A stretch of DNA of 29,230 nucleotides from the NCBI GenBank assembly GCA_029856105.1, contig JAHQWH010000132.1, positions 1-29,230 of the forward strand. Direction: 5' to 3'. The translations under genes were made by a program, and so were the position numbers. The notes below the pieces were generated by a model. That model was not told the origin of the DNA, searched no databases, and worked only from the letters and a program-made list of their open reading frames with translations. Position 1 is the stretch's first letter. Each line of letters starts with the position of its first letter. Source of the DNA: Promethearchaeia archaeon. Its GTDB lineage: Archaea; Asgardarchaeota; Lokiarchaeia; Sigyniarchaeales; SOKP01. Positions 19,154 to 25,565 of this stretch are shown in pieces.

Positions 19154-21094
19154 ATGGAAAAATCTGAAAATCATCGGATTGGATACTATGCATGCCAGTG
19201 AGGTATAAATATACGTAGTAAAGTTGATTGCAACGAGTTAGTACAATTTGCCAAAGGCTTAGATGATGTGGTTATTTCAAAAACTCATGCCTTTCTATGA
19301 ACAGAAAGCGGTCAAAACGAGATAATCAAAGATATAGAAGAAAAAAACTTAGATTGTATTGTAGCTTCTGCTTGAACACCTAGGACACACGAACCAATTT
19401 ACAGGGCATCGCTCGCTAAGACCGCTGCGAATCCTTACTTTTTTCAAATGGTTAATGTAAGAGAACATTGTTCTTGGTGTACTGAAGATAACGAAGAGGC
19501 TTTAGAAAAAGCAAAAATCTTGGTTTATGGCGGAGTCAATAGAGCAAGATGTTTGGAGGCCATCCCTATAAGAACAGTTCCCGTTGAAAAAGCAACCTTA
19601 GTGGTTGGTGGAGGAATAGCTGGGATGAACGCCGCGTTAGACCTAGCAAATGGAGGGATAAAAGTTTATTTAGTCGAAAAAAATACCACAATCGGGGGAA
19701 GGATGTCTCAGTTAGACAGAACCTTCCCAACCGACGATTGTTCGATTTGAATTTGCGGACCCAAAATGCTTGAAGTCAATCGCCACGAAAATATCGAGAT
19801 TCTAAGCTATAGCGAAGTGAAGAAGGTCGAAGGATATGTCGGAAATTATATAATCACCGTTGAAAAGAAGTCTCGGTACATAAACAACGATTGTAATGGT
19901 TGTGGTGCCTGTTCTGAAGTGTGTCCGATATATACTTCGAATTATTTTGACGAAAATTTAGGAGTGAGAAAAGCAATAGATATAGCGTTTGGACAAGCAG
20001 TACCTTTTTTGTACGACATTAATAGAGATGTATGCGTTGAATGTTTTAGTTGTGTGGAAGCTTGTGAGTTAGAAGCCATTGACTTCAGTCAAGTGCCTGA
20101 AGAAGTTACGTTTAATGTAGGAACGATAATAATCGCAACTGGATGGGATATTTACGAACCATATGGAGAATACGGATACGGAAAGTTCGAAAATGTGATT
20201 CAACAAGCCCAACTTGAAAGAATCTTAGCGCCGAATGGTCCATTAGAAGGACATGTTCATAGAATTTCGGACACCAAAAAACCTAAGGAAATCGTGTTTA
20301 TTCAATGCGTAGGTAGTCGTAACACGGAAAGACCTTATTGTAGTGGCGTTTGTTGTATGTTATCGTTGAAAAACGGAAAATTGCTTAAACAAGAATTTCC
20401 AGAAGCGAACATTACCATTTGCTACATAGATATGAGAACGAACGAAAAAGGGTTCGAAGAATATTATCAACGAGCTAAAAATTCTGACATCAGGATGATC
20501 CGGGGAAAGGTTGGCGAAATTACTGAAGATCCAGAGACTAAAAACGTAAATATTCGAGTTTATTCGTCTTTAACTGACGAAATTATTAAGATTAGCGCGG
20601 ATTTAGTCGTTCTATCTACAGCTGCATTACCATCAAAAGGTACGGAGCAAATAGCTAAAGTATTAAACTTAGACGTCGATACAAACGGGTTTTTAACAGA
20701 AGCTCACTTTGGATTGATGCCACAAGAGACTAATACTAAGGGAATTTTTATAGCTGGGTTTGCTCAAGGACCAAAGGATATTGCGTATTCGGTTTCTCAA
20801 GCAAGAGCCGCTGCGAGTAAAGTAGCTGAATTAACCGCCCCTGGAAAAATAGATATTGAATTAATAATCGCTGAGGTTTATAAAGAGCTGTGTATTTCGT
20901 GTAAAAGGTGCGAAAAAGCATGCCCTAAAAACGCTATAAAAGTTGTTCGCGACGAAGGTGCTGTTGTAGACGAGATAAATTGCGATGGGTGCGGGATTTG
21001 CGTTACTTGTTGTCCCACTCAAGCAATAGACATTAGATATTATCGAGATTATCAACTATTTACTGAAATTGATGGAATTTTAGGAGGAGGTTAA
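19154..21094 (+). CDS. hdrA: Heterodisulfide reductase subunit A, selenoprotein with four Sec (U16, U49, U74, U199), 646 aa
   Basis: One frame from ATG 19154 to TAA 21092-21094, with in-frame TGA at 19199, 19298, 19373 and 19748. Contexts RIGYYACQ-U-GINI, HAFL-U-TESGQ, IVASA-U-TPRTHE and FPTDDCSI-U-ICGPKM align to CH-C-GINI, MYS-C-SSDSQ, IVAS-C-TPRTHE and FPTNDCSL-C-ILAPKM of the paralog at 25565. FAD motif VVGGGIAG, two ferredoxin units and CVGSR..YCSGVCC are intact. Confidence 0.93.
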
Positions 21095-21099
21095 ACGGA

Positions 21100-21558
21100 A
21101 TGGAGAACAATTATAAAATTGTAATATTTGCTTGTCTAAAGTGAGGATACAGCGCTGCAGATTTAGCAGGAGTCTCTCGTATGAAATATACAGCATCAGT
21201 AAAGATTATTAAAGTAAGATGCACTGGAAGAGTCGATGTAAAGCACATCTTATATAGCATAAAAGCTGGAGCTGACGGAGTTATGGTTGTTGGATGACGA
21301 CCAAATGAATGTCAGTTTAAAGAAGGAAATTTTAACGCCCAAAGACATGTTGATTTTGCTAATAGAATTTTGGAAAAGCGAGGATTCGGTAGTCGAAGAG
21401 TTAATATGTATTGGCTAAGTAGTGCTGAGGCAGAAAAGTTTGTTAAAAGCGTCGAGGATGCCTACGAAAAAGTAAAAAGATCTGGACCCAATCCGTTAAA
21501 AAGCATGGATATTACGAAAGTAAAACAAAAAACATTAACTACTCCCGTAGAAGAATGA
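21100..21558 (+). CDS. vhuD: MvhD/VhuD [2Fe-2S] subunit, selenoprotein with two Sec (U15, U66), 152 aa
   Basis: SD GGAGGAGGT (21083-21091), ATG 21100. In-frame TGA at 21142 (IFACLK-U-GYSAADLAGVSR vs FCCNW-C-SYAGADLAGVSR of 28671) and at 21295 (GADGVMVVG-U-RPNEC vs GADGVLITG-C-HIGDC). RCTGRV is intact. Confidence 0.93.
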
Positions 21559-21616
21559 ATCTTATAAAAAAAATTTAGTTATAAGATGACTTACCTTGCG
21601 AAGGTGGGAGTTTAAT
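21534..21616 (+). promoter_or_regulatory. Eukaryote-like (Loki-type) SECIS element
   Basis: ATGA 21555-21558; stem ATCTTATAA 21559-21567 / TTATAAGAT 21579-21587 (9 perfect bp); loop AAAAAATTTAG; GA 21588-21589. Lower helix ACTCCC 21541-21546 / GGGAGT 21606-21611, extendable by ATTAA 21534-21538 / TTAAT 21612-21616. Lies directly at the end of two UGA-containing genes. Confidence 0.85.
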
Positions 21617-21669
21617 AATAATTTAGTTTGTTAAAATATGTATTAAATAAATAGGTAAATGAAGGAAAT

Positions 21670-23175
21670 ATGGTTCAAGTTGTAAATAACAAGTTATTTA
21701 AGGGTATTTCTCCCAAAGACTTAATGGAGGCTACTTATCAAGCGTCGGGAAATTTTCAAGTAAGAGCTTTCTTTGAAGCAAAAGAAGAGATATTAAAAGT
21801 AGGTAAATTTTCTGAAAACGAATTTTACGAAATCCTAGATGCTATGGTAGAGGCAGAAACTGAGCGAAAATTAGTATTGAAAGAATTAAAGGGTAATAAG
21901 CCGTTGTTTTTAGAAGAAATCGTAAAGATCGTCAAAGATTTCCCTCCTGAAAATGTTATTAGAGACATTATTTATTTAAAAGAACAAGGTTACGTTCAGG
22001 AACACGTGGAAGTCAAGACTAAAACGGTTATAAAAAAAATCAAGGGAGAAGAAAAAGAAGTTGAAGTAAAAGAATTCTTTTACAGATATCAAATAAGGAA
22101 ATTGCCAGACGATTTTATTGAGCACTATTTTGAACCTGTTTCTATAGTTTTTAACGCGGGAGTCTGTTGTCAATGTGGATGGTGCTCTGCGATCTGTCCT
22201 GTAAACGCCATCATAGTGACGGCAGACACTCTTGAAATTGACGAAGACATTTGCATGAAATGTGGGTTGTGTTTTTCGGTCTGTCCTCGTTCCTTTTCGA
22301 TAGATCAAGCTAACGAAAGCATTAAAAAGTTAGACAAATCTTTAAAATGGTCTGACAAAACTGGAGCTTATATTAACGCTTACTCAGCATCAACGACCAA
22401 AGATGATATTAAGAAAGTTCGTCAAGATGGTGGTATTGTAACTTCTATCTTGGAATATCTTTTAGAAAATAATCTTGTTGATGCAATTGTAGCTGTGCAG
22501 CATTCTGAGGAATTATGGAGACCTGAACCTGTAATAGTAGAAAACTTAAAAGATTTATATAAAACAGGTGGAACCAAATATGCAAATTCGCCTTCTTTAA
22601 CCGTCATAGATCAATGTAAGAAATACGAGAAGATAGCTTTCGTAGGAGTACCTTGCATGATGAAAGCTATAGAAAAGGGTGCTATGTTTCCAAGTGGGTT
22701 ACCATTTTTTAAAAATATTAAATACAAGATCGGGCTTTTTTGCATGGAATCATTTCCTTACGACGGAATAATTAATTTAGCTAAAGAACAATTCAATAAG
22801 GACATAAAGGAACTAACCAAAATGAATATTGGAGGCGGTAAATTTATAATAAACTTGAAATCTGGAGAGCAAATGGATGTACAACTTAAAGAAGTGCAAA
22901 AATACGCGCGAGATAATTGTCATTTTTGTGAAGATCTAACATCAGATTACGCCGACATTTCTGTAGGATCAATTGGGTCGCAAGATGGATGGTCTTCTGT
23001 AATAACGAGATCGAAAGATGCAGATAAACTATATAACGATATAGTTAAAGCAGGATTAATCGAATCTAACAGTTTAAAGGATGTGAAGCCCGGGCAATTT
23101 CTAGTAGAAAAAATTGGTGGAATTAAACGAAAAAAATGTAAATCAATAGATTTGAGGGAGAATCAAGATGAGTAA
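21670..23175 (+). CDS. FrhB/FdhB-family protein with ~150-aa N-terminal helical extension and 2x[4Fe-4S]
   Basis: CCQCGWCSAICP, CMKCGLCFSVCP, RQDGGIVTS, GTKY, AFVGVPC, IGLFCMESF, CHFCEDLT...ADISVGSIGS. Confidence 0.9.
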   Translation: MVQVVNNKLFKGISPKDLMEATYQASGNFQVRAFFEAKEEILKVGKFSENEFYEILDAMVEAETERKLVLKELKGNKPLFLEEIVKIVKDFPPENVIRDIIYLKEQGYVQEHVEVKTKTVIKKIKGEEKEVEVKEFFYRYQIRKLPDDFIEHYFEPVSIVFNAGVCCQCGWCSAICPVNAIIVTADTLEIDEDICMKCGLCFSVCPRSFSIDQANESIKKLDKSLKWSDKTGAYINAYSASTTKDDIKKVRQDGGIVTSILEYLLENNLVDAIVAVQHSEELWRPEPVIVENLKDLYKTGGTKYANSPSLTVIDQCKKYEKIAFVGVPCMMKAIEKGAMFPSGLPFFKNIKYKIGLFCMESFPYDGIINLAKEQFNKDIKELTKMNIGGGKFIINLKSGEQMDVQLKEVQKYARDNCHFCEDLTSDYADISVGSIGSQDGWSSVITRSKDADKLYNDIVKAGLIESNSLKDVKPGQFLVEKIGGIKRKKCKSIDLRENQDE

Positions 23176-24293: not shown

Positions 24294-25565
24294 ATAACAG
24301 AAACAAAAAGAGATATTGAAAGAAAAAAGTTATTTGGAGATACCTTAGATTATTTAGACAAAATTTACGAACCAGATTTAAGAAAGCTATTAAAGAGATG
24401 CTATCAATGCGCTCGTTGCAGTGGGGTTTGTCAATTAAGTAAGGTACAAAAATACACTCCAAGCAAAATAATTCAGCTAATTTTAGAGGGTTTTGAACAA
24501 AAAGTATTAGAGAGCGAGGTATTATGGGATTGTTTAACCTGTAATCAATGTCTTAAAGATTGTCCAGAGGAAATAAACTTTGCAGATCTTGTTAGAATGG
24601 CCAGATATAAGATGAGGCATTCATACAATCAAAATATTGATGAATCAATAGCACATAAAGGAATCTATACGACGATTTCAGAAATAATGAGTCGTCCATA
24701 TATTAATCCTGATAGATCTCTTGAATGGATTCCTAAAGGTTGCAAAACATCGGAGAAAGGTAATATTTTATATTATGTTGGTTGTTTACCTTATTTCAAT
24801 TACGAATTTGATAATTTAGATTCTATAGCAAAAAGTACGCTACAAATTTTATGTAAAGTCGAAAAAGAACCTATAGTCGTTTTTAAGGATGAAATTTGTT
24901 GCGGACACGATATATACTGGGGTCAAGGAAAGTTAAAAACATTTATTAAGTTAGCAAAAAAAAATATTGAAATGTTTGAGAAAGCAGGAGTCTCTACTAT
25001 CGTAACTGCATGTGCTGAATGCTATAGAACTTTTAAGATTGACTATCAAAAAATTTTTGAAGATTTTAAAGAAAAATTTGAAGTAAAGCATATTATTGAA
25101 TACATTTATGAGATGTGGAAGGAAAGTAGAATAGAATTTATAAATACGAGTCAACTTGAAGAACAGATTTCATTTACATATCACGATCCATGTAGATTAA
25201 GCAGGTTTTTACCCAAAGAAAATAATATTACTGAAAGTGTTCGGGAAATATTTAAGGAATTCAAAAAGTTAGGTTATAATTTTAACGAGATGGAACATAA
25301 CAAGTCAAACTCTTTATGTTGTGGTGTGAATTCTTGGATGAATTGCAACGAGAAATCTAAAGCTCTTAGATATAAAAGAATGTTAGAAGCCAAAGCTGCT
25401 GGAACGATAATGGTAACTTCCTGTCCAAAATGTAATATACACCTTTCTTGTCTCCAAAATGATATCGAAGAAATTTCTTCAATAGAAATTTTAGATTTCT
25501 CTGAGTTTTTAATAAATCATATTAAAGTTATTGATCCTAACAAAAAAGGCGAGGAAAAGGAATAA
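24294..25565 (+). CDS. HdrD-like (HdrC+HdrB-type) Fe-S/CCG-domain oxidoreductase with probable non-canonical ATA/ATT start
   Basis: Frame is open from 24276. The part upstream of the track's ATG 24597 encodes CYQCARCSGVCQ and LWDCLTCNQCLKDCP (two [4Fe-4S] motifs). Downstream CCG motifs: YYVGC, EICCG, TACAEC, YHDPC, LCCG, TSCPKC. SD GAGGAG at 24282-24287. Confidence 0.85.
   Translation: MTETKRDIERKKLFGDTLDYLDKIYEPDLRKLLKRCYQCARCSGVCQLSKVQKYTPSKIIQLILEGFEQKVLESEVLWDCLTCNQCLKDCPEEINFADLVRMARYKMRHSYNQNIDESIAHKGIYTTISEIMSRPYINPDRSLEWIPKGCKTSEKGNILYYVGCLPYFNYEFDNLDSIAKSTLQILCKVEKEPIVVFKDEICCGHDIYWGQGKLKTFIKLAKKNIEMFEKAGVSTIVTACAECYRTFKIDYQKIFEDFKEKFEVKHIIEYIYEMWKESRIEFINTSQLEEQISFTYHDPCRLSRFLPKENNITESVREIFKEFKKLGYNFNEMEHNKSNSLCCGVNSWMNCNEKSKALRYKRMLEAKAAGTIMVTSCPKCNIHLSCLQNDIEEISSIEILDFSEFLINHIKVIDPNKKGEEKE

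Follow-up and report, generated by a model that had tools for sequence, protein, structure and literature searches.

The vhuD stop codon lies in the predicted kink-turn core of a lokiSECIS element with a conserved third arm

Background

The hdrA-vhuD locus of a Promethearchaeia archaeon (assembly GCA_029856105.1) raises a question of codon use. Six UGA triplets within its two reading frames are candidates for decoding as selenocysteine (Sec), and a seventh terminates vhuD while lying inside the core of the putative SECIS element that would direct the decoding of the other six. Is this overlap a special device by which termination acts back on recoding, or a layout that the element tolerates?

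Much of the framework has been published. According to the text of Mariotti 2016 (PMC4989117), the lokiSECIS has an AUGA and a GA or AA on the two sides of a 9-bp stem, and its apical loop of 11 nt is A-rich in the first five bases and has G as its last base, mostly after an A. The same text reports that hdrA-vhuD pairs share one SECIS downstream of vhuD, with up to six UGAs over approximately 2 kb, that many Loki selenoprotein genes end in UGA but hdrA never does, and that the AUGA doubles as the stop codon in VhuU.1, with partial overlap of element and coding sequence. It further argues that structural reasons prevent the recoding of a UGA this near to the SECIS. The text of Huang, Xiao and Zhang 2024 (PMC11227280) argues likewise, names the element Asgard type I eSECIS-like element and describes stop codon overlaps as frequent. 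Because the sharing of one element by six UGAs and the stop within AUGA were published in 2016 and 2024, the headline of the present finding is already known: neither the use of UGA six times for Sec and once for stop nor the placement of a stop codon within AUGA is new. The locus is a typical lokiSECIS, to which the analysis adds a clear covarying base pair at position -1 and the distribution of stop codon positions.

Methods

The window, i.e. the whole stretch of DNA that was analysed, comprises 29,230 nt of contig JAHQWH010000132.1. All coordinates are window positions, and all features described at the locus are on the forward (+) strand. The source MAG has a size of 3.66 Mb and a G+C content of 32%, and is 92% complete.

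A covariance model with the three-way structure was built from a seed of nine orthologs, the window's own element being left out. Base pairs were counted in an alignment fitted to the model structure, which comprised 70 distinct elements and represented at least five genera, with slid partners and shuffled sequences as controls. As this alignment was fitted to the model, a model-independent check was run on core-only matches. The core-only pattern, which asked for AUGA, a 9-nt stem with pairing, a loop with G as its last base, and RA, gave 15 matches in the genome scan. The loose form of this pattern, without pairing, yielded predominantly random matches, 53 to 96 per genome compared to 28 to 39 in the reversed control, and became usable only with the stem-pairing filter.

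Results and discussion

The hdrA-vhuD locus

Gene hdrA (19154..21094), assigned from its open reading frame (ORF) and Pfam domains, ends in TAA and carries four in-frame Sec UGAs at positions 19199, 19298, 19373 and 19748. These four positions are UGA in nine out of nine orthologs, and at three of them the aligned residue of the Cys-type paralog at 25565 is Cys. Across the orthologs, hdrA terminates with TAA or TAG without exception. After a spacing of 5 nt follows vhuD (21100..21558), a gene of the FlpD/MvhD family (Pfam PF02662, FlpD; E 1e-43). Frame analysis located three in-frame TGAs in it, two of which (21142 and 21295) are assigned to Sec, while the third (21556-21558) is the stop codon. 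The earlier note on this DNA had stated that one mRNA uses UGA six times for Sec and once for stop, and the frames bear this out, with four UGAs in hdrA, two in vhuD and the vhuD stop as the seventh. The six Sec UGAs are situated upstream of the SECIS at distances of 261 to 2357 nt.

SepSecS was found in the source genome on contig C16 (E 4e-115). A search for tRNA-Sec in the 92% complete MAG gave no match at the cut-off of Rfam family RF01852, and the best two matches below the cut-off were a tRNA-Gly and a tRNA-Leu.

An frhB-like gene in the same orientation was observed at 21670. The gap of 53 nt that separates it from the SECIS (21617-21669) is without a long T run; the SECIS may be intercistronic inside a longer operon, rather than part of a true 3′ UTR.

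Identity of the element

The core AUGA is located at 21555-58. Its UGA coincides with the terminal TGA of vhuD, as the earlier note had read from the letters, and the coordinates were confirmed by the frame analysis. AUGA stands directly 5′ and GA (21588-89, followed by CUU) directly 3′ of a stem of 9 bp (21559-67 / 21579-87). The stem is closed by an 11-nt loop (21568-78) with the sequence AAAAAAUUUAG, which starts A-rich (AAAAA) and has a G after an A as its last bases. There is a single such element after vhuD, placed at the end of a selenoprotein gene. These features agree point for point with the published description of the lokiSECIS.

No Rfam family matched the window at its gathering score, and no SECIS family matched positions 21000-21800 at E ≤ 10; according to the text of PMC4989117, the authors' own SECIS covariance models gave no match to lokiSECIS either. 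Weak Rfam matches were obtained for snoR21 (20.9 bits) and snoU49 (17.9 bits), which would fit a different type of kink-turn RNA, e.g. a C/D-box sRNA or a regulatory site bound by L7Ae, without any role in selenocysteine insertion. However, the gathering scores of these families are 45 and 35, respectively, far above the matches, which arise because the kink-turn motif is shared, and a D box (CUGA) is absent. Moreover, every copy in the genome is placed behind an ORF, and in nine of the ten cases this ORF contains an in-frame UGA. Together with the agreement with the published lokiSECIS, this makes the alternative extremely improbable, and we retain the assignment to the lokiSECIS.

The euryarchaeal SECIS (eaSECIS), which is characterised by a GAA_A bulge that separates two stems and by three consecutive G-C pairs in the upper one, was also considered and rejected, as inspection of the folds and the alignment revealed no GAA_A bulge flanking a G-C stem. 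In contrast, the main stem of the vhuD SECIS of Methanococcales and Methanopyrus has this euryarchaeal bulge, as the text of Mariotti 2016 describes it for Fig. 4B.

With the eukaryotic SECIS (form 1), the element shares the AUGA...GA quartet kink-turn, the A-rich apical loop and a location 3′ of the Sec codons, from which it would act over a distance. It differs from the eukaryotic form by its shorter upper helix, by its third arm and by the overlap with a stop codon and coding sequence. Its kink-turn is canonical (3-nt bulge, G-C closing pair), whereas the eukaryotic SECIS (form 1) has a large internal loop. SBP2 is not known in Lokiarchaeota-type archaea according to the text of PMC4989117.

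Covariation and conservation of the fold

The earlier note had drawn a three-way junction, and the minimum free energy (MFE) fold of the single sequence reproduces it exactly, although the energy as such lacks significance (z -1.74). That the predicted fold is more than chance emerges from the comparison of sequences. The covariance model matched the window at 21532-21617 with 85.8 bits (E 4e-20 in the whole genome), the single match on the sense strand of the window, and gave six further matches elsewhere in the source genome. Matches were present in 130 of the 151 genomes of the order; they covered 129 of the 131 genomes of the window's family and none of the 19 genomes searched in sister families.

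Over the 70 elements, 88.7% of the cells were paired, compared to 67% in the shuffled control and 41-53% when the partners were slid. Double-sided changes were counted in 301 cells versus 77 in the shuffles, and all pairs (22/22) covaried. In the upper (NC) helix, composed of a 9-nt 5′ arm (21559..21567) that includes the in-frame TAA at 21565-67 and a 3′ arm at 21579..21587, 94% of the cells were paired and every pair covaried. The columns for AAA and the terminal AG of the apical loop (21568..21578) were invariant in a 23-sequence alignment (A1). The closing (lower) helix pairs ACUCCC (21541..21546), which belongs to the coding sequence of vhuD (codons Thr-Pro), with GGGAGU (21606..21611). 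It was paired in 84% of the cells with covariation at 6/6 pairs, and orthologs have variants such as ACUCCU/AGGAGU and ACCCCU/AGGGGU.

A longer lower helix, with a 5′ arm at 21534-21546 inside the coding sequence, had been proposed before. Its inner 6 bp (21541-46 / 21606-11) stand, as does the coding character of the 5′ arm, but the outer part does not: the extension AUUAA/UUAAU (21534..21538 with 21612-21616) was paired in 55% compared to 50% in shuffled and 40-45% in slid controls and was rejected. Between the closing helix and the core, the sequence GUAG (21547..21550) is read as an unpaired junction linker. Its pairing with CUUAC (21590-94) was rejected, since orthologs with AUAG or GCAG mismatch while the 3′ side is unchanged.

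RNAalifold on a sequence-only MAFFT alignment of orthologs and paralogs recovered the upper stem, with eight of its nine pairs, and no other arm. Because such an alignment misaligns the other arms by indels, these were tested on the model-fitted alignment with its controls and in the core-only matches. The earlier note had made the SECIS reading depend on a stem that is conserved and covaries among the orthologs, and this is what the alignments display.

The third arm

The hairpin ACCUU-GCG-AAGGU (21593..21605) branches off on the non-bulged strand. The earlier observation that it creates a three-way junction absent from the eukaryotic SECIS model is confirmed at these positions and agrees with the MFE fold. 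It is not a peculiarity of the vhuD element: the hairpin is a general arm of the lokiSECIS, present in 10/10 elements of the source genome and recurring throughout the 70 aligned ones.

The ten elements come from the core-only scan of the genome. Ten of its 15 matches, the window's included, are located at or within approximately 50 nt after the end of an ORF. Nine of these ten ORFs, comprising three vhuD copies, vhuU, prxL and small proteins, hold an in-frame UGA, which aligns with or resembles a Cys/Sec site; for the tenth element (L016) the gene call is uncertain. The side hairpin occurs in all ten, 2-4 bases after the core (G/A)A-C, and its stems differ, with ACCCC/GGGGU, AAACC/GGUUU, AACCAU/AUGGUU and AACUU/GAGUU as examples. 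The closing helix was found in nine elements and is absent from L018.

In the 70 elements the side hairpin was 82% paired. Its third pair is UA in 28, UG in 16, CG in 12, AU in 3 and GC in 1, and the loop nearly always contains GC. An alternative register with a GNRA tetraloop (GCGA/GCAA) was dismissed on inspection, as registers with tri- or penta-loops pair more in most elements.

The side hairpin is present also in six core-only matches from other genomes, which the model had failed to detect or had given weak scores, namely two vhuU elements, three tandem elements on G141:C53 and one vhuD-like element on G141:C117. The closing helix was detected in four of these six and is absent from two of the three tandem elements. 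Flipped hairpin arms occur in some core-only matches (AGGA..UCCU, AUGGU..ACCAU, GG..CC), with the GC of the loop retained. To judge from these comparisons, side hairpin and closing helix are real, covarying and not special to vhuD.

The published texts give a stem with a loop, or an internal loop with a lower stem. Figures and supplements apart, a side hairpin, a three-way junction or the -1b/-1n pair are not described in the lokiSECIS papers (PMC4989117, PMC11227280), and the text of a 2026 review (PMC13188914), with the same restriction, contains no description of a third arm or junction.

Several additional elements were noticed in the course of the scans. At G000:C48 (L018:258-452:-), G000:C122 (L020:1120-1320:+) and G000:C190 (L022), predicted membrane proteins of 65-67 aa have one in-frame UGA each, situated in a GGGU-LC or GGUCC motif, and their own three-armed lokiSECIS downstream. 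They have no Pfam match and are possibly small selenoproteins outside the known Pfam families. A weaker model match with 31.8 bits and an extended apical region was located at G000:C217:12472-12561 (L030:1501-1590:+), 13 nt after a 323-aa ORF with one UGA and no Pfam match. In this element the side hairpin reads CUC-CGCG-GAG, and the C after the core GA is replaced by an A, which pairs with U at -1b. Tandem arrays of three SECIS each, every one after a short ORF, exist at L067 (G118:C99:62084-65169) and L123 (G141:C53:11200-12950). In L067 each ORF has an in-frame UGA and the -1 pair is A-U (core GAU) where most elements have G-C, while the side hairpins of L123 are of flipped polarity (AGGA..UCCU).

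The predicted kink-turn core

In the standard layout of the kink-turn literature, a C helix is followed by a 3-nt bulge and then by G.A and A.G pairs. The same order is found in the element. The bulged strand of the C helix is AAG (21551..21553), with G21553 at position -1b, followed by the bulge L1-L3 (A, A, U; 21554..21556). The stop codon begins in this bulge with U21556 and continues with G(1b) and A(2b) (21557..21558), assigned to tandem G.A pairs. On the non-bulged strand (21588..21592), G(2n) and A(1n) of the core precede C21590 (-1n), U21591 and U21592, which constitute the C helix strand. Hence, the sequence has a Watson-Crick pair at -1b/-1n, a bulge of the type N-A-U and GA opposite GA, as in standard kink-turns.

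The pair G21553-C21590 is kept in 70/70 elements (GC 65, AU 4, UA 1), which makes the core a predicted canonical kink-turn. Position -1n is C in 65 of the 70, and the other five covary with -1b. The next pair down, A21552-U21591 (-2), is formed in 85% of the 70 elements, and A21551-U21592 is clade-specific. Within the bulge, L1 is mostly A (55 elements), with G in 14 and U in one. In alignment A1, L2 is invariably A and the (G/A)A-C is likewise invariant. The core reads AUGA in 68/70, the exceptions being GUGA (L066) and AGGA (L065). The GA at 21557-21558 opposite G21588 A21589 is invariant, and by the kink-turn rules these bases would adopt the sheared G.A geometry. The stop codon of vhuD is L3, 1b and 2b of this predicted kink-turn.

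Position 3b/3n is an A-U Watson-Crick pair here and non-Watson-Crick in 29/70 elements. According to a published folding rule (PMC4382518), a Watson-Crick pair at 3b/3n predicts a kink-turn that does not fold in metal ions alone. From this rule we infer that folding of the vhuD kink-turn would be assisted by protein, and the motif suggests an L7Ae-type protein as candidate binding partner.

The transition from a kink-turn into a three-way junction, with the extra helix on the non-bulged strand, is shared with the k-junction (Wang, Daldrop, Huang, Lilley 2014, PMC4005666; PMC10573300). In the k-junction the third helix is directly opposite the loop, whereas here it starts 3 nt after -1n, below one to three pairs of the C helix. 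Because these pairs intervene between the loop and the third helix, the element is a standard kink-turn abutting a three-way junction, i.e. k-junction-like but not a member of that class.

Position of the stop codon

The core UGA is the stop codon of vhuD in 13 of the 15 loci from species-representative genomes and in 30 of the 34 orthologs of a larger set. In L006, L057 and L058 the stop codon is a UAG at -4, in frame through a 1-nt deletion, with its G two positions ahead of AUGA. In L014 it is a UGA at -3 that directly precedes AUGA and whose G is the -1b G. Outside the vhuD orthologs, stops at +1 were found for vhuU and the paralog vhuD-c. The stops of other selenoprotein genes are at -4 (eight cases), at -3 (three cases) or at -5 to -67, and in about half of the other elements the stop is 12 to 67 nt upstream. 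The consensus of the 5′ strand, UAG-N-AUGA, offers potential stops in two frames and the U-UGA-AUGA variants cover the third; the genes use the one that is in frame. As the SECIS is kept where the stop is UAG at -4 or UGA at -3, the overlap, although common and ancestral in this group of orthologs, is dispensable.

These counts bear on the view that the stop in the core is a selected coupling or feedback device, in which a terminating ribosome melts the SECIS, strips off the bound factor and transiently halts recoding at the six UGAs, which would pace or gate the synthesis of selenoproteins. The layout is indeed retained in 30/34 orthologs, down to approximately 73% protein identity, stops cluster in the kink-turn strand (+1, -3, -4) of many unrelated selenoprotein genes, and about half of all elements have the 5′ arm of their closing helix within coding sequence. 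However, retention among orthologs is automatic, as AUGA is fixed by the function of the SECIS and the frame is fixed by coding. In at least three ortholog lineages the SECIS persists although the stop has shifted to UAG -4 or UGA -3, and since roughly half of the remaining elements carry the stop 12 to 67 nt upstream, the overlap is not a requirement. Stop positions that are interchangeable in this way argue against a required gating of upstream recoding. The special role that the earlier note had considered possible for the overlap is not sustained by orthologs and paralogs that equally end at UAG -4, at UGA -3 or further upstream, and we regard such a device as quite unlikely.

Downstream of the core UGA the frame continues with ATC TTA TAA. 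A TAA two codons after the core UGA occurs in 25 of the 32 elements that end at it. It disappears where the stem has another sequence, and in five of the 32 (e.g. L012 and L039) the frame runs on for 13 to 30 codons before a stop. The TAA belongs to the UAUAA of the conserved stem and is thus a by-product of the stem sequence. The position of this codon (21565-67) and its frame had been given correctly before, but the backup role then assigned to it is at odds with its origin in the stem and its absence from 5/32 elements. The recurrence of the TAA in 25/32 could also be expected if some ribosomes decoded the core UGA as Sec and produced a longer VhuD isoform, with Sec-Ile-Leu added before the TAA at 21565-67. 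Against this stands the loss of the TAA when the stem to which it belongs changes (5/32), and the codon to be recoded lies inside a SECIS that cannot stay folded during its decoding. Such an isoform is very improbable, and the core UGA is best read as a stop codon.

Proposed function

The lokiSECIS features, the location beside the stop of a selenoprotein gene, the covariation and the presence of SepSecS in the genome lead to the SECIS reading. From the sequence comparisons, the region 21541-21611 is very probably the single lokiSECIS of the hdrA-vhuD bicistron, a kink-turn with a three-way junction that serves six UGAs, the seventh being the stop codon in a compact and tolerated layout. It would recruit the Sec-decoding machinery to the six upstream UGAs, as its position, the published family, the conserved UGAs at Cys positions and SepSecS suggest. 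In the proposed structure, the kink-turn would lead into the 9-bp stem with its 11-nt A-rich loop, and the C helix would open one to three base pairs below into the three-way junction. The junction would be formed by the GC-containing side hairpin on the non-bulged strand and the 6-bp closing helix with its coding 5′ arm.

The mRNA entry channel of the ribosome covers approximately 10 or more nt 3′ of the A site. By the time the seventh UGA enters the A site, the ribosome would have melted the closing helix and the kink-turn, together with most, if not all, of the upper stem's 5′ arm. With the SECIS unwound at this codon there would be no recoding and the release factor would win, as in the published argument. 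The overlap would be a compact, tolerated layout and need not be a dedicated regulatory device.

A more far-reaching proposal is conceivable. The UAG-N-AUGA strand might have been shaped to carry a stop in any frame, coupling termination with disassembly of the SECIS, such that each ribosome would reset the bound factor and pace the decoding of up to six UGAs. Linked to it is the proposal that the third arm with its loop GC might be the docking site of an archaeal SECIS-binding factor. We consider this combined scenario unlikely and prefer the tolerated layout.

Conclusions

The eukaryotic SECIS has been proposed to descend from the Asgard element. The analysis would sharpen the published model of the latter by a textbook kink-turn core, by a conserved three-way junction with an extra arm and by an unfolding that would take place at every termination.
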